From a phage: a stretch of 64,000 bases of DNA. Shown in pieces: positions 896 through 6,172 of the stretch. The position numbers and the translations under genes are program-made. The notes under the pieces are model-generated. The model had not been told where the DNA came from and did no database searches. It was given only the letters and a program-made list of their open reading frames with translations. The stretch is from sequence record PZ171035.1; one strand, written 5' to 3'. Position 1 is the stretch's first letter. Each line of letters opens with the position of its first letter.

Positions 896-926
896 GACCT
901 CCCCATCGAAGGGAGGTCTTTTTTTG
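896..926 (+). terminator. rho-independent terminator
   Basis: GACCTCCC-N7-GGGAGGTC stem followed by a T7 run. Confidence 0.7.
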
Positions 927-950
927 GTTTAAACATCCTGGAGCCAGAAA

Positions 951-1139
951 ATGTATAAAGAGATTGCATTTTTCTCATTCTTACTGGGTGGTTTAATAGG
1001 TGCAGGATTTGTAGCTATTTCCAATACCTACTTTGGTTCTACTCCAAACTCTGTAACACAAACTCTCAAGCATGAATGTGAATTAAATATCCCTCGTAAT
1101 CAAAACTGTGTAATGCAGTTCGTACCGGAGAAGAAATGA
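951..1139 (+). CDS. small membrane protein
   Basis: 62 aa with hydrophobic segment FFSFLLGGLIGAGFVAI. Confidence 0.4.
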   Translation: MYKEIAFFSFLLGGLIGAGFVAISNTYFGSTPNSVTQTLKHECELNIPRNQNCVMQFVPEKK

Positions 1140-1345
1140 AAGTAATAAATCGTTCTGAGAACAATGAGGTAACTTTCGGTGATGTACAACCTGCTAATGG
1201 TTTTATTTATAACCAGACAGTGTGCTTAAAGATTCACTTACCTGATGGTAAACCTGCTGCTGTTGCTGTAGAGACGGGAAAATCATTCTGTCTATCTGCA
1301 AGTACATTCGTAACACCAATAAACCTGGAAGGATATTACCTTTGA
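1136..1345 (+). CDS. hypothetical protein
   Basis: 69-aa ORF, ATGA overlap with upstream gene. Confidence 0.4.
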   Translation: MKVINRSENNEVTFGDVQPANGFIYNQTVCLKIHLPDGKPAAVAVETGKSFCLSASTFVTPINLEGYYL

Positions 1346-1527
1346 AATTAACCCAGTCCCAAGCAATCTTCCTTCGTATGGTTCAAGGTGGTTCTGCCAC
1401 CAGCAACCGTAATAACAAAACCGCACAGTCTCTTAAGAAACTGGGCTTAGTTCAGTTCAATACTGGTCTTGGGTGGTCATTAACCCCTATCGGTGTACTT
1501 CAACTCAATGAAATGAAAGGTAACTAA
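1342..1527 (+). CDS. hypothetical protein (TTG start)
   Basis: 61-aa ORF; TTGA overlap with upstream stop; GGAAGGA 8 nt upstream. Confidence 0.35.
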   Translation: MKLTQSQAIFLRMVQGGSATSNRNNKTAQSLKKLGLVQFNTGLGWSLTPIGVLQLNEMKGN

Positions 1528-1857
1528 ATGAAAACTTTACTTAAAGGTATTGCAGTAGCTGCACTGATAGCTTTGGTTTCAAATGCACAGGCAATTGAAC
1601 CTGAACCAATTCTGGAAGGTGCTCAGGCTTACCTGGATGACACCCGTGATGCGTTCGGGCAAGGATTCTTCATGGGCAGTATGATCTCTTATATCGAGAG
1701 TATAAATAATTGCGTTCCCGAAGGTGTTAAGTATTCAGTCATTCTGCCTAAGATTGCCAAAGTAGTTATTTATGATTCTGCAATCCTCAAGATGAAGAAT
1801 ACATCTCAAATTGTTGTGTACTCAGTACACAAGGCATATCCCTGCACTAAATCTTAA
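1528..1857 (+). CDS. secreted/periplasmic protein with N-terminal signal peptide
   Basis: MKTLLKGIAVAALIALVSNAQA signal-peptide-like N-terminus; RBS GAAAGG. Confidence 0.5.
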   Translation: MKTLLKGIAVAALIALVSNAQAIEPEPILEGAQAYLDDTRDAFGQGFFMGSMISYIESINNCVPEGVKYSVILPKIAKVVIYDSAILKMKNTSQIVVYSVHKAYPCTKS

Positions 1858-1891
1858 TCAGCAATCCCATTAGCTTTAGGAGAGTAAGTAA

Positions 1892-2205
1892 ATGGCAAGC
1901 ATCGACTCCTTGACTGTATGTAATTCACGTCAAGCTCGTAACTTTATTATCCGTGCCCTGAAAGCAGGTAACGTACCGTTCCTGACTTCATCACCTGGCA
2001 TGGGTAAATCTGCAATCATTCGTTCTATTGCAGAAGAATTTGGTATGAAGTTAATTGACCACCGTCTATCTACTTCTGCCCCGGAAGACCTGTCTGGCTT
2101 ACCTTTCCGTAATGGTGACCGTGCAGAGTTTATTCCATTCGCTGACTTATTCCCCATTGAGGGAGACGAAGTACCAGAAGGCTATAATGGCTGGCTCTTA
2201 TTCCT
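1892..2205 (+). CDS. AAA+ ATPase (MoxR/AAA_5-like), exon 1
   Basis: Walker A SPGMGKS; ORF ends in LLFL followed by stop; joining to 3088 restores Walker B LLFLDEFN. Confidence 0.6.
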
Positions 2206-3087
2206 TAACTAACGGGGCTTCATGAGAGCAATCTCATGTCGAAAGTTACCTAAACAGGGAACCTCTTCTAAACTGGTTGGCTCAAGTGTATACTTGAGTT
2301 TTAATCAATTGGAGACAATCCTGTGCTAAATAATGAAATTTGGAAAGATGTGCCCGGCTTACCGTATGAAGTTTCCAACTTTGGCGTAGTACGCCGAAAG
2401 GAAGGAAAGTATAAATACAAAAACAGGACACATATAAAACCGTATCTTAATAACAAAGGATACTACTGCGTGAACCTGTACATGAATAGTAAAGTGTACA
2501 AATACCAAGTTCACCGTCTGGTAGGATTAGCCTTTGTACCAAACCCTAATAACTATCCTGTTATTAATCATATAGATGGAAACCCTCTTAATAACCACGA
2601 GAGTAACCTGGAATGGTGTACCCAGTCTCATAACATGAAACATGCTTGGGATACTGGACTGCAAACAAACAGGCACGCTAATGCTAGTAATAAAAATCGT
2701 GGAGGCTCCTCCAAATATGTAGGCGTATCCTGGAGTGAGCAAAGACAAAGATGGTGTGCCCATATAAGGGTTAACAAGAAATCTATTGGTTTGGGACGTT
2801 ACAAAACAGAGGAAGAAGCTGCTAAAGCTTACGACTCCTACGTAACTAATAACAATCTTACACAGATTGGGTACAGTACCAATTTCATTTAAACGCCAAA
2901 CGACTATCGAAAACACACAGAAATGTGGAAGTGAGTAGAGTAGGGTGCAAGCCAATGGCACTCGAAACGGTAACAGCCCTAGCAATAGGGCTTTGATATA
3001 GTCTCCTCTGCATGGTGACATGCAGCAGTCAGTATTCACTGAGTGTACTGACGGCATTAGTAGTTGCGAACTAATGTGAAGATAATG
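2206..3087 (+). mobile_element. group I intron with embedded HNH homing endonuclease gene
   Basis: Interrupts the ATPase ORF inside Walker B; exon 1 ends in U (2205) able to G-U pair with GGGG at 2214-2217 (P1); intron ends in G (3087); P7-like pairing GACTAT(2902-2907)/ATAGTC(2998-3003); GATATAGTCTCC resembles the S element; several stem-loops incl. CTGCATG-GTGA-CATGCAG (GNRA loop). Confidence 0.6.
2323..2892 (+). CDS. HNH homing endonuclease with NUMOD4-like N-terminus and AP2-like DNA-binding domain
   Basis: GTG start with GGAGA RBS; EIWKDVPGLPYEVSNFGVVRR (NUMOD4-like); HIDGNPLNNHESNLEW (HNH); YVGVSW...RWCAHIRV...GRYKTEEEAAKAYD (AP2-like). Confidence 0.75.
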   Translation: MLNNEIWKDVPGLPYEVSNFGVVRRKEGKYKYKNRTHIKPYLNNKGYYCVNLYMNSKVYKYQVHRLVGLAFVPNPNNYPVINHIDGNPLNNHESNLEWCTQSHNMKHAWDTGLQTNRHANASNKNRGGSSKYVGVSWSEQRQRWCAHIRVNKKSIGLGRYKTEEEAAKAYDSYVTNNNLTQIGYSTNFI

Positions 3088-3826
3088 CGATGAGTTTAAC
3101 TCAGCTAAGAAAGAAGTAGTAGCTGCTGCATACAAACTAATTCTCGACCGTATGACTGGTCAGAAAAAACTCCATCCTAATGTGATGATTGTCTGTGCTG
3201 GTAACAAAGCTACCGACCGTGCCATTGTTAACCCACTGGGTACTGCAATGCAGTCTCGTGTGATTCACTTCGAGATGGAACTCAACTTCGACATCTTTGT
3301 TGAAGACGTAATGATTCCTCAGCAATGGGATGAACGTCTGGTTGCATTCTTACATGCTAACCCAGGTTATCTGCATGACTTCGACCCAGCCCATAAGAAC
3401 AAAACATTCTGTTGTCCACGTACTTGGGACTTTGTTAACAAAGACCTCAAGAATCAGCCGGAAGGTGCTCTGCCTGATGAAGATTCTATCTACTATGCAG
3501 GTCACGTTACTGCCGGTAAAGCTACAGAATTTGTTCAGTTTACTCAGGTATATAATCGTATCATTACGATTGAGAAGGTAGTCAAAGACCCACTGGGCTG
3601 TGCATTACCGGAAGATAACAACCTGTGCTGGGCTACCGTTAACCATCTGGCTAACAAAACTACTGAAGAGAATTTCGCTGAAGTTCTTCAGTACATTGAA
3701 CGCTTTAAAACGTTCACCCATAAGATTCTGTACTTCCGCACAGTAGGCAAAGCATTACCAGAAATTCAGGCTACACCTGAATGGCGTAAGGCTGCTGCTA
3801 ATGTCTCTCGTTACATTCACGGGTAA
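3088..3826 (+). CDS. AAA+ ATPase, exon 2
   Basis: Frame open from 3086; reads DEFNSAKKEVVAAAYKL...VMIVCAGN (sensor-1-like); the ORF-track start at 3152 is an internal Met. Confidence 0.6.
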
Positions 3827-5009
3827 TCACAAAATGAACCAATTTCCTCAGCACACACTTAGTGATGAACAACTCATGCGTGAGTATGACCGTATTCAGG
3901 CCCAAGCCTTCCTGGGCAAGTCTGCTGCGTTCTTTGGTTCATTACTGTGTAGCCTTAAATTCTCATGGAAACGTGAGGATTGTCCCACTGCATGTACCGA
4001 TGGGATAGAACTCCATTTCAACCCAGATTTCTTTATCTGGATGTGTCCAGATGCAAGAGAAACAGTGTTAATGCACGAATTATGGCATGTGGCATATCTA
4101 CATGACATCCGTCGTGGAAGCCGTGACCCAGAAGTCTGGAACCAGGCATGTGACCACTTCATTAACCTTCAGTTAGAAGAGGATGGTTATAAGTTCACTG
4201 GTATTGATGAAGGCATTTGCAAAGACCCCCAATATAAAGGATGGGTCGAAGAAGACATCTACGATGACCTGATGAAGAACCCTCAGAAAAGGCAGAAGCC
4301 GTCAGGGGGTGCTGGAGCAGGTCTTGCTGGCGACATGAAATCCCCCACTTCGGGGCAGTCCCAGGGTGCTGTTGTCAACAACGTAGTACGTGCAATGCAG
4401 AGCCAGAAGATGGCAGGTGGAACAATGCCCGGTAAAGGTGCTGGTCGTATGGAAGAGGTTATTACCCAATTCCTTAAACCAGTGGTTCCATGGCAGGAAG
4501 TCCTTATGAACTTCTTTACCGACATTGATGACACTCATTATACGTGGGCCAGACCTAACCGTCGTTACACTGACATCTATCTACCTTCTTTAGAAGATGA
4601 TGAAGGGCGTTTACGACACTTAGCCTACTTTGAGGATGTATCTGGTTCCATCAGTAGTGCTGACTCTCTGCGTTTTAACTCAGAGGTTGCCTACGTTAAG
4701 AGCCAGTTTAATCCTAAGAAGATGTCATTAATTACCTTCGACGATATTATCCAAGAAGAGATAGACATCACTGAAGAAGATACTTTTGAGGAGATTAAGA
4801 TTACTGGTCGTGGTGGTACAAACCTGGAACCAGTGCGTGATTGGATTATTAAGAATAAGCCAACCGCTGCAATCATATTCTCCGATATGTATGTTCGTCC
4901 AATGGAAGAATTGCCATTTGATATTCCTATCATCTGGTGTGTTCTGAATAATCCCAATGCTACCGTACCTTTTGGGGAGGTAGTTCATATCCCTAAAGGA
5001 ATGAAATAA
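3801..5009 (+). CDS. vWA-domain protein with metallopeptidase-like HExxH motif
   Basis: 402 aa; HELWH motif in N-terminal half; C-terminal half vWA-like; alternative in-frame start at 3834 just after ATPase stop. Confidence 0.55.
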   Translation: MSLVTFTGNHKMNQFPQHTLSDEQLMREYDRIQAQAFLGKSAAFFGSLLCSLKFSWKREDCPTACTDGIELHFNPDFFIWMCPDARETVLMHELWHVAYLHDIRRGSRDPEVWNQACDHFINLQLEEDGYKFTGIDEGICKDPQYKGWVEEDIYDDLMKNPQKRQKPSGGAGAGLAGDMKSPTSGQSQGAVVNNVVRAMQSQKMAGGTMPGKGAGRMEEVITQFLKPVVPWQEVLMNFFTDIDDTHYTWARPNRRYTDIYLPSLEDDEGRLRHLAYFEDVSGSISSADSLRFNSEVAYVKSQFNPKKMSLITFDDIIQEEIDITEEDTFEEIKITGRGGTNLEPVRDWIIKNKPTAAIIFSDMYVRPMEELPFDIPIIWCVLNNPNATVPFGEVVHIPKGMK

Positions 5010-5515
5010 TGGTTGTTAATGGTAATTCTCTATATCGCTCATCTCAGTTGCTGGATGTACCAGACCGTAAGGTATCCAAGCATGGTGTAAGCTATGGGTT
5101 GGGTGAAGCTGGTTATGATATTCGTATCAAACAGGATATTACCTTCTATCGCTTATTTGGGTTGATTCCAATGGTGAAGGTCGTTGATGGAAATCAAGTA
5201 TCACGCCATCTCGGTAAGTTCACATTGGCTTCGGCAATCGAGAAGTTCAACATGTCTCCTTCCTGTGTAGCAATCGTTCACGATAAATCTACATGGGCAA
5301 GACGTGCATTATCAGTGTTCAATACCGTAATAGAACCAGGATGGAAAGGGTATCTCACCCTTGAACTGGTCTACCATGGTCGTAAGAAATTGCATATCCC
5401 GGCTGGTTCTGGGATAGCTCAAGTATTATTTCATCTGGTTCAAGAACCTGCTAATTACAATGGCAAGTATCAGAACCAGGAAAACCAACCAGTAGCTGCT
5501 AGACCTTCAAAATAA
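5009..5515 (+). CDS. dcd: dCTP deaminase / dUTPase-fold protein
   Basis: 168 aa; GYDIR and PGWKGYLTLEL motifs resemble the dCTP deaminase family. Confidence 0.55.
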   Translation: MVVNGNSLYRSSQLLDVPDRKVSKHGVSYGLGEAGYDIRIKQDITFYRLFGLIPMVKVVDGNQVSRHLGKFTLASAIEKFNMSPSCVAIVHDKSTWARRALSVFNTVIEPGWKGYLTLELVYHGRKKLHIPAGSGIAQVLFHLVQEPANYNGKYQNQENQPVAARPSK

Positions 5516-5545
5516 AAGGCTATCCGGCTTAATTAAGGAAACAAC

Positions 5546-5755
5546 ATGTCAGTATTTCAAGTAACTCATGCAACCTCAGATGTACGCTTAACCATTAATG
5601 CTGTAAATGTAATTGCAGTAGAACAGATTCCACAGTCTGACCATGCACGCGTAATATTTGTAGATAAGAACTATATAGAAACCAAAGAAACCTATCGTTC
5701 TGTACGTAATTACCTGAAAAAAGCTCTTGCTCCTGCAAATAAAGATGCTGAGTAA
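5546..5755 (+). CDS. hypothetical protein
   Basis: 69-aa ORF followed by a 12-bp perfect hairpin. Confidence 0.4.
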   Translation: MSVFQVTHATSDVRLTINAVNVIAVEQIPQSDHARVIFVDKNYIETKETYRSVRNYLKKALAPANKDAE

Positions 5756-5766
5756 GTAGCTGCCTA

Positions 5767-5793
5767 AATAGCCCAACATAGTTGGGCTATTTG
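5767..5793 (+). terminator. hairpin, terminator-like
   Basis: AAATAGCCCAAC-ATA-GTTGGGCTATTT perfect 12-bp stem; weak T tract. Confidence 0.4.
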
Positions 5794-5828
5794 TGAAGAA
5801 ACTAACTCAACCTCACATAGGAACCATC

Positions 5829-6071
5829 ATGGAATCTTTAGCAGCAATCCTTGTTATGTTGTTTGTATTAGCGGTATACCTTATCCCTACTATCATTGCT
5901 TTTTCACGAGGCCATGCCTCTAAGTGGGGCATTGGTGTGCTCAATATCGTATTAGGCTGGTCACTAGTATTTTGGGTAGTAGCACTGATTTGGTCACTGT
6001 CCAACAAAGGTCAGAACCAGGTTACGAATGTAACTGTTGTTCAAACCAATGGTGGCAGTAAAGCAGAGTAA
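5829..6071 (+). CDS. superinfection-immunity-like small membrane protein (Imm-family-like)
   Basis: PTIIAFSRGHASKWGIGVLNIVLGWSLVFWVVALIWSL; ORF-track GTG start at 5793 lies inside the upstream hairpin, so ATG 5829 with AGGA RBS is preferred. Confidence 0.45.
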   Translation: MESLAAILVMLFVLAVYLIPTIIAFSRGHASKWGIGVLNIVLGWSLVFWVVALIWSLSNKGQNQVTNVTVVQTNGGSKAE

Positions 6072-6145
6072 CTAATCTAAGCATCATTACATAGTGGTGC
6101 TTGTGGAAGTTGCTTCCAGCTCATTGCTTATCCATCTCCTAACCC

Positions 6146-6172
6146 AAGCCCACCTAACCCGTGGGCTTTTTT
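6146..6172 (+). terminator. rho-independent terminator
   Basis: AGCCCAC-CTAACCC-GTGGGCT followed by T6. Confidence 0.7.

Follow-up and report, generated by a model that had tools for sequence, protein, structure and literature searches.

In the characterised pairs formed by a MoxR AAA+ ATPase and an adaptor with a von Willebrand factor A (vWA) domain, a hexameric ring binds one adaptor through the vWA domain, the metal of the MIDAS (an adhesion site that depends on a metal ion) is liganded by an acidic residue of the target, and ATP hydrolysis is passed on to that target (PMC9976466). NorQ/NorD and CbbQ/CbbO, each consisting of a MoxR AAA+ hexamer and a vWA adaptor, are the pairs with which the proteins discussed here are compared. 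Midasin (Rea1/Mdn1) likewise couples AAA_5 modules to a substrate-gripping MIDAS domain, although within a single giant eukaryotic polypeptide that has six AAA modules and lacks a peptidase domain. Among phages, a MoxR AAA+ ATPase and a vWA cochaperone with an N-terminal metallopeptidase domain have been described in group 2.2 jumbo phages, where a role in virion assembly was proposed from context (Iyer et al., 2021; PMC7824862). In phage N4, gp24 is a putative ATPase of the AAA superfamily and gp25 a hypothetical protein of the vWFA superfamily, with the function given as unknown (PMC2784036), and both are counted among the 14 genes of the N4-like core (PMC4193335, Table 3). The subject of this analysis is the locus at positions 1892–5009 of a 64,000-nucleotide stretch of phage DNA (sequence record PZ171035.1; the whole stretch is called the window), which is identified by sequence comparison as carrying the homologues of N4 gp24 and gp25.

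The window phage is assigned by its sequence to Gamaleyavirus, that is, to the N4-like coliphages (Schitoviridae). In a megablast search against phage genomes, window 1500–5600 matches 67 records at 92–94% identity, all of them N4-like podophages of the Gamaleyavirus type (G7C-like) with Escherichia, Shigella and Klebsiella as hosts. The records of these relatives label the two genes as "similar to" phage N4 gp24 and gp25, and the gene for dCTP deaminase (N4 gp26) comes next; the two window genes thus appear as orthologues of the N4 genes, in identical order and with the same gene after them, and they are 93–99% identical to those in deposited genomes. The reading that we favour, with a probability of about 0.6, is that gp24 and gp25 would form a two-component, ATP-driven machine for protein remodelling with a built-in protease. 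The elements of the pair are the following.

1892..2205, + strand: exon 1 of the gp24-type AAA+ ATPase, residues 1–105, through the first two bases of codon 105 (placed by alignment with the intronless ECBP1 and by the final U expected of an exon before a group I intron)
3088..3826, + strand: exon 2 of the gp24-type ATPase, from the last base of codon 105 to the stop
3801..5009, + strand: gp25-type protein, with a zincin-like N-terminal domain and a vWA/MIDAS C-terminal domain
4074..4088, + strand: HELWH, the HExxH zinc-binding/catalytic motif (H81, E82 and H85 invariant)
4635..4649, + strand: DVSGS, the first MIDAS element (T329 lies at 4818–4820 and D351 at 4884–4886)

An earlier prediction made from the letters of this stretch (the original prediction) had proposed a MoxR-like AAA+ ATPase paired with a vWA/HExxH protein, and had set profile searches beforehand as the test of an AAA+ and a vWA relationship. 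Such a relationship was found for both proteins (Pfam AAA for the first, the "VWA-like" DUF2201 for the second), and the view that ATPase/vWA pairs are chaperone or remodelling modules is supported by the characterised MoxR–vWA pairs (PMC9976466).

The two proteins of the pair

The ATPase gene is split. Unspliced, exon 1 is read as an open reading frame (ORF) at 1892–2212 that ends in ...GWLLFLN before its stop codon, while the frame of the ORF at 3152–3826 is open back to 3086 and, from 3089, reads DEFNSAKK.... The intronless ECBP1 aligns to window 1502–2206 and 3089–5600 and to nothing between them, and the same continuity across the 2206/3089 join is shown by Bp4 and by the N4-like segments of two bacterial contigs (L006 and L007). 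One base of the junction is ambiguous (T2206 or C3088, with leucine either way), and the intron is placed at 2206–3087 on two grounds, the group I rule (U as the last base of the exon, G as that of the intron) and its alignment to the td intron of T4. Splicing is predicted to join LLFL↓DE (the arrow marks the splice site), which rebuilds the Walker B motif and gives a product of 350 residues; the original prediction was right about the spliced structure and one residue too long at about 351. This product aligns over 100% of its length with uninterrupted homologues of 350 residues, the best of which, from a cluster of 685 member sequences, is 96% identical. The intron in Walker B distinguishes the window gene from the gp24 homologues reviewed, those of ECBP1 and the full-length 350-residue ones listed, which are uninterrupted. 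The split ATPase is best annotated as a single intron-containing gene.

Exon 1 carries the Walker A motif GMGKS (1997–2011), the PEDLSGLP motif (2081–2104) and the first half of Walker B, LLFL; exon 2 carries D106 and E107 of Walker B (3089–3094), N144 (3203–3205), R162 (3257–3259) and an all-alpha C-terminal half that contains the segment KTFCCPRTW. All three motifs that had been claimed for the spliced protein, Walker A, Walker B and VCAGN, are present. G38, K39, S40, D106 and E107 are invariant among 36 gp24 sequences, and invariance was also found for P64, D66, G69, L70, P71, N144 of the sensor-1 motif VCAGN and R162 of QSR; R162 is read as the conserved arginine of the x[SD]R[FMV] box, with the structural role that this position would imply.

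The generic AAA family of Pfam recognises gp24 above its cut-off (27.3 bits vs 21.2), whereas the score for AAA_5 is below its own cut-off and AAA_3 is not detected by Pfam; the AAA_5 cut-off is passed, with 27.9 bits, by an archaeal homologue that is 29% identical. Midasin is the only solved structure matched by sequence at E ≤0.01 (E 3e-4 with the single protein and 7e-4 with the family profile), and the PEDLSG segment is aligned to DLMDLFG of midasin. The structure was modelled with AlphaFold2 on an uninterrupted homologue (P0121, 96% identical), with a predicted local distance difference test score (pLDDT) of 86 and a predicted template modelling score of 0.81, and the nearest structures to this model in a fold search are those of dynein, midasin, CbbQ and NorQ. 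As to the pre-sensor-1 beta-hairpin and the helix-2 insert of the dynein/midasin/MoxR clade, there is a short hairpin in the model at residues 127–133, just before beta-4, and a conserved segment of 41 residues between beta-2 and beta-3, which includes PEDLSGLP and has a pLDDT below 50. The KTFCCPRTW segment (residues 209–217, window 3398–3424), in the helical C-terminal half, is invariant, as is PEDLSGLP, and has no assigned role. In addition to its Pfam scores, it is this conserved helical half, of approximately 180 residues, that sets gp24 apart from NorQ and CbbQ. NCBIfam has no match for gp24, gp25 or their cellular homologues. On these grounds gp24 is classified as a divergent branch of the dynein/midasin/MoxR clade and not as MoxR proper, so that the label "MoxR-like" stands in the broad sense only.

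The second gene, as an ORF from the ATG at 3801, has 402 codons, as originally described. Its homologues have approximately 390 residues and cover 97% of the ORF, for which reason the ATG at 3834 (391 residues) is the likelier start. The combination of HELWH with a vWA-like C-terminal half was borne out by Pfam: DUF2201_N ("putative metallopeptidase", PF13203) covers the N-terminal half with an E-value of 8.2e-57 and 193 bits vs a cut-off of 23.2, and DUF2201 ("VWA-like") covers the C-terminal half with 1.8e-33, both of them strong matches that chance would not give. Conservation was evaluated in 35 phage sequences and in a mixed set of 23 phage and archaeal or bacterial sequences, the latter at 25–31% identity. 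In both sets H81, E82, H85, N103, A105 and D107 are invariant, as are D268, S270, G271, S272 and D351 of the MIDAS, and T329 is invariant in the phage set and present in at least 90% of the mixed one. Within the invariant group N103/A105/D107, D107 is a candidate for the third zinc ligand.

The C-terminal half has a Rossmann-like vWA fold according to the fold search, with the vWA domain of NorD among the structural matches; the matches listed by both fold searches are all chains that contain a vWA domain. A search of the gp25 sequence against solved structures gave no match. When a profile of the N-terminal 150 residues was compared with the sequences of the Protein Data Bank, weak matches were obtained to HtpX (E 0.0044), the minigluzincin MJ1213 (0.018) and an M48 peptidase (0.019), which span the strand and the helix that bear HExxH and nothing more. 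The N-terminal domain can be described as zincin-like, with its catalytic residues kept, and peptidase activity would be expected of it. Residues 213–256 (window 4470–4601), with the pattern W..PNRR..YLPS before the vWA domain, are strongly conserved and have no assigned role, and the pLDDT is below 50 over most of them. In comparison with NorD and CbbO, the vWA domain of gp25 is minimal (approximately 125 residues) and its N-terminal zincin domain is absent from both of those adaptors.

Many RefSeq and pharokka records (including L001, L003, L004 and L022) name the gp25 homologues "HNH endonuclease", a label copied from PHROG 1314. This identity is rejected, given that Pfam finds DUF2201_N and DUF2201 only and no HNH domain, and the label is a propagated mis-annotation.

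The td-like intron and the homing elements at the locus

The element that interrupts the ATPase gene has two parts.

2206..3087, + strand: group I intron of the T4 td type, 882 nucleotides, absent at this exact point from ECBP1, Bp4, L006 and L007
2323..2892, + strand: homing endonuclease ORF within the intron, 189 residues, GTG start, with the Pfam domains NUMOD4, HNH_3 and AP2

The intron ORF is classified from its domains as a standard phage homing endonuclease of the HNH-AP2 type with an intact gene: NUMOD4 (2e-10), HNH_3 (1.6e-08) and AP2 (4.6e-10) are each above the cut-off, the ORF matches PHROG 59 with 2.5e-44, and the record of phage U1G already annotates it as "HNH homing endonuclease # Phage intron". 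The group I model of Rfam (RF00028, Intron_gpI) gives a weak match to the intron, with 22.2 bits vs a gathering score of 50 and an E-value of 0.0055. The 3' part of the intron matches 595 phage records, and a core stretch of 32–37 nucleotides is 92–97% identical to T4-like phages; in T4 this stretch sits between I-TevI and exon 2 of td, inside the td intron.

The td intron of T4 belongs to subgroup IA2. The window intron is assigned to the same kin, with a homologous P3–P9 core, on the basis of several segments that both have in common: CUAAAC(A/G)GGGAACCUCU in the 5' part, GCC(A/U)AACGACUAUC, ACUCGAAACG and GAUAUAGUCU(C/G)CUCUGCAUGGUGACAUGCAGC in the core, and an identical 3' end, AUAAUG↓, which in the window gives the junction ...AUAAUG↓C. 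The 5' junction, ...UUCCU↓UAACUAAC GGGG, has the layout of that of td, GGGU↓UAAUUGAG GCCU, and the two introns start alike (UAAC vs UAAU). A U precedes the 5' splice site, the last base of the intron is G and P1 has a G-U wobble. In both introns the guide sequence is found eight nucleotides after the intron start and pairs with its own exon, as GGGU/GCCU in td and as UCCU/GGGG in the window, where P1 has been re-tuned to the exon of a different host gene; such a compensatory change supports both the P1 pairing and the splice site. Another difference is the endonuclease, which is the GIY-YIG enzyme I-TevI in td and an HNH-AP2 enzyme here. The window intron is predicted to be self-splicing.

Among the relatives, the intron in Walker B is sporadic: it is present in U1G, in NAN33P5 and probably in PW8 (80% coverage, in four pieces), and absent from most Gamaleyaviruses, which marks it as a mobile element. 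Its insertion point lies between L105 and the invariant D106–E107, so the observation in the original prediction that an intron sits in the catalytic motif was correct. The reason for that position, which the prediction had found unclear, has an ordinary answer, namely that homing elements settle at invariant sites, since they persist at immutable sequences common to co-infecting relatives. The position of the intron thus reflects the biology of homing endonucleases and the indispensability of the motif, with no sign of regulation. The idea that the intron regulates the ATPase was considered and rejected, because its sporadic distribution and the other homing elements found at invariant sites indicate selfish homing.

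Those other elements make the gp24/gp25 locus a hot spot. In Shigella phage pSb-1 (L003, 1592–2459), the ATPase gene is interrupted at another site, within codon L67 of the invariant PEDLSGLP, by a further td-like intron that encodes an HNH endonuclease of its own; this intron has the same UAACUAA start, is 90% identical over part of the core, and its P1 is re-tuned to CCU/GGG. A metagenomic gp25 homologue of 700 residues (P0078, from a JGI metagenome) is interrupted by an intein (PF14890) that separates A105 from C106 precisely, in the invariant NxACD motif of the zincin domain. In phage Bp4 (L004, 2596–2928), a free-standing HNH-AP2 ORF lies between gp24 and gp25, and the record of this phage annotates each of the two genes in pieces, in a way that resembles frameshifts.

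Transcription unit, distribution and neighbourhoods

The surroundings of the pair in the window are defined by three further features.

5009..5515, + strand: dCTP deaminase gene (ORF list and annotation of relatives)
896..918, + strand: terminator-like hairpin upstream of the transcription unit, a stem of 8 bp (6 GC) followed by a T-run
6146..6168, + strand: terminator-like hairpin downstream of the transcription unit, a stem of 8 bp (5 GC) followed by a T-run

The stop codon of gp25 overlaps the start of the dCTP deaminase gene (TAATG), which makes the latter a co-transcribed neighbour. The two hairpins enclose small ORFs, gp24, gp25, the dCTP deaminase gene and an Imm-like gene, and no + strand terminator of similar strength was found in 918–6146, where the sole candidate is a weak stem of 5 bp at 2081–2097, within exon 1 of gp24. 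From the positions of the hairpins and the TAATG overlap, gp24 and gp25 are predicted to be co-transcribed with genes of DNA metabolism, and a ThyX gene is among the window neighbours of the pair. Just upstream of the ATPase gene, the ORF at 1528–1857 (109 residues; "hypothetical" in relatives) has a signal-peptide-like N-terminus (MKTLLKGIAVAALIALVSNAQA). The ORF at 5793–6071, in the same transcription unit as gp24 and gp25 and just before the terminator at 6146–6168, encodes a small membrane protein; the records of relatives give its counterpart as superinfection immunity (Imm-like).

The gp25 family is very large. A profile search found 30,405 cluster representatives (clusters at 50% identity) with E ≤0.001, and tblastn found homologues in 731 phage records, which include Schitoviridae, jumbo phages of the Rak2/K64-1 type, a Pseudomonas jumbo phage of 288 kb, the Thermus phage phiFa and others. 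Vequintavirinae (rV5-like phages) match the N-terminal domain only, and the Vequintavirus homologue is found among small early genes. By tblastn, the gp25 homologues of jumbo phages such as K64-1 are 24–27% identical. In K64-1 the homologue of the ATPase gene adjoins that of gp25, and genes for a DprA-like protein and thymidylate synthase, as well as structural genes, lie close by; the two-gene architecture of group 2.2 jumbo phages, with the ATPase gene directly upstream, is the same as that of the window, although the proteins are only 22–27% identical and the context in the window is DNA metabolism. In Rhizobium phage TM27B the pair lies upstream of DNA polymerase I.

The pairing is kept in the phage loci inspected and in the archaeal and bacterial loci sampled, with carriers among marine group II archaea, Lentisphaerae and others. 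In every cellular locus with enough flank, the gene directly upstream of the gp25 homologue is a gp24 homologue (BLASTP 1e-23 to 1e-30), often with an overlap of four nucleotides; this applies to 74 of 80 metagenome loci, and the remaining six have less than 500 nucleotides upstream. A third gene usually precedes the cellular pair. In 33 of the 80 metagenome loci and five others it encodes a family of 550–625 residues with no Pfam match, and in nine of the 80 and in L013, L014, L017 and L020 it encodes a UvrD/PcrA-like helicase (355 bits to the PcrA model). The helicase/gp24-like ATPase/DUF2201 operon belongs to one bacterial clade and has a WYL-WCX regulator nearby in L013, L014 and L017; three-gene operons were noted at these three loci and at L020, L029, L036, L039 and others. 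The frequent cellular neighbours are genes for WYL-WCX regulators, SIR2, Macro, ADP-ribosylglycohydrolase, LRAT and phosphatases.

Segments syntenic with window 1.9–14.7 kb (gp24, gp25, the dCTP deaminase gene, ThyX and more) are found inside a contig of 727 kb of Mesorhizobium yinganensis CN2-181 (contig2, L007) and inside a contig of 297 kb of a Roseococcus metagenome-assembled genome (L006). They may represent an N4-like element, whether integrated or carried, or else a chimera that arose in assembly.

Proposed role of the pair and its alternatives

The mechanism that we propose begins with the td-like group I intron, which would splice itself out and repair the gp24 transcript, restoring LLFL↓DE. 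The protein would then form a hexameric ring on which gp25 would dock through its small vWA domain, in the manner of NorD and CbbO on NorQ and CbbQ; the metal bound at the MIDAS of gp25 would capture an acidic side chain of the target protein, ATP hydrolysis would pull or loosen it, and the tethered zincin-like HExxH domain would presumably cut it. The zincin domain of gp25 has kept its catalytic glutamate, and the simplest interpretation is therefore a protease or remodeller that depends on ATP and is targeted by the MIDAS; by analogy with the characterised pairs, this is the part that we consider quite probable. The class of target is a guess, offered tentatively and with the odds against it, namely a protein that acts on or is bound to DNA in the middle phase of the infection (replication and nucleotide metabolism). 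What favours such a target is the transcription unit, together with neighbourhoods that resemble each other in unrelated phages and with the cellular operons linked to UvrD.

Several observations weigh against this proposal. No experiments on gp24 or gp25 were found in the searchable literature, and the location of a gene in a "DNA metabolism" module argues only weakly for what it does. The AAA_5 score of gp24 is 17.5 bits vs a cut-off of 22, and clamp-loader structures score nearly as high against the gp24 model as MoxR proteins do. The link to UvrD is restricted to a single bacterial clade (the nine of 80 metagenome loci and four others), no homologue of the third cellular gene was found in the phage window, and the SIR2, Macro, ADP-ribosylglycohydrolase, WYL and phosphatase neighbours point to conflict systems rather than replication. 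Two sources were set aside: a preprint on transposon mutagenesis that mentions gp24 concerns phiKZ, and a proteomics paper on Gamaleyavirus particles accepts 44–56 proteins for each phage, too loose a criterion for its lists to help here.

Of the alternatives, the one that survives best, while still unlikely, is a chaperone or protease of virion assembly that folds, assembles or processes structural or ejected proteins, with the capsid and the giant virion RNA polymerase as examples. Like the structural genes, the pair is part of the core gene set; structural genes and Hsp70 flank it in K64-1; and, among the few window genes examined (the structural module not being among them), gp25 has the only protease domain. 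However, the genes are in the middle, DNA-metabolism unit, apart from the late structural genes (PMC4193335), the pair also occurs in cellular genomes that have no virion context, and its presence in phages outside Schitoviridae (jumbo phages, Vequintavirinae) makes no link with an N4-type virion RNA polymerase evident.

More doubtful is a protease of host takeover or anti-defence, which would destroy a host defence or stress factor early in infection. The cellular homologues do lie beside genes of the kind that typifies conflict islands (WYL-WCX, SIR2, Macro, ADP-ribosylglycohydrolase, LRAT), pre-late expression can be deduced from the genome position, and the company of small early genes in Vequintavirus would fit. 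Genes of this kind, however, are usually variable accessories, whereas this pair is core to the whole family and strongly conserved, and in PADLOC neither protein has a match below E 0.001 (only chance-level ones for gp24, DolB at E 0.0057 and IetA at E 0.061, and none for gp25).

Very improbable is a chaperone for metal-cofactor insertion or enzyme activation of the NorQD, CbbQO or CobST type, in which HExxH would hold a metal without cleaving peptides. Characterised MoxR–vWA pairs do act in this way (PMC9976466; see also PMC13036017 and PMC4660213). The structural matches include NorQ, CbbQ and the vWA domain of NorD, and enzyme genes adjoin the pair (dCTP deaminase, ThyX), but no characterised pair has a zincin domain and the invariant catalytic glutamate E82 points to hydrolysis. 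Moreover, neither dCTP deaminase nor ThyX is known to need an inserted metal centre.

The last alternative, that gp24 is a clamp-loader-like or other replication AAA+ protein unrelated to gp25, or that the split gene is dead, draws on a weak match to the PHROG "clamp loader of DNA polymerase" (E 1.3e-05) and on the annotation of the interrupted gene as two ORFs in relatives, and is rejected as largely refuted, given the 447 bits to the family-specific PHROG vs 26 to the clamp-loader one, the dynein and midasin structures at the top of the matches with midasin the only sequence match at E ≤0.01, the tight pairing with gp25 across the archaeal, bacterial and phage genomes sampled, and a complete group I intron flanked by exons that together retain every invariant residue.

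The remodelling machine with a built-in protease may be taken one step further, in what is a long shot. SPRTN/Wss1 and p97/Cdc48 are a zincin protease and an AAA+ unfoldase that work together on DNA-bound proteins, and gp24, gp25 and their cellular relatives may constitute a class, not yet described, of zincin proteases that depend on ATP, are targeted by the MIDAS and remove proteins from DNA, for example DNA-protein crosslinks or replication roadblocks. The likeness is a functional analogy only, to be taken as a lead, and it would fit the UvrD-linked operons and the position in the replication module. If true, the pair would be the prokaryotic and phage counterpart of SPRTN/Wss1 with p97, accompanied in cells by a UvrD-like helicase under WYL-type regulators, and a core replication accessory in N4-like phages.

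The pair as such is already known: its genes have been recognised as N4-like core genes since 2009–2014, the architecture was described in jumbo phages in 2021, and the intron is flagged in the U1G record. The analysis adds the exact position of the splice junction, the kinship of the intron with td, the view of the locus as a homing hot spot, the correction of the mis-annotation and the conserved three-gene operons of cells. The pair is among the few genes common to all N4-like phages and recurs in jumbo phages, in rV5-like phages and in a very large cellular family; with its substrate identified, one of the few gaps left in the N4 core genome would close and Pfam DUF2201 would gain a function, and the cellular operons offer a concrete lead for experiments.

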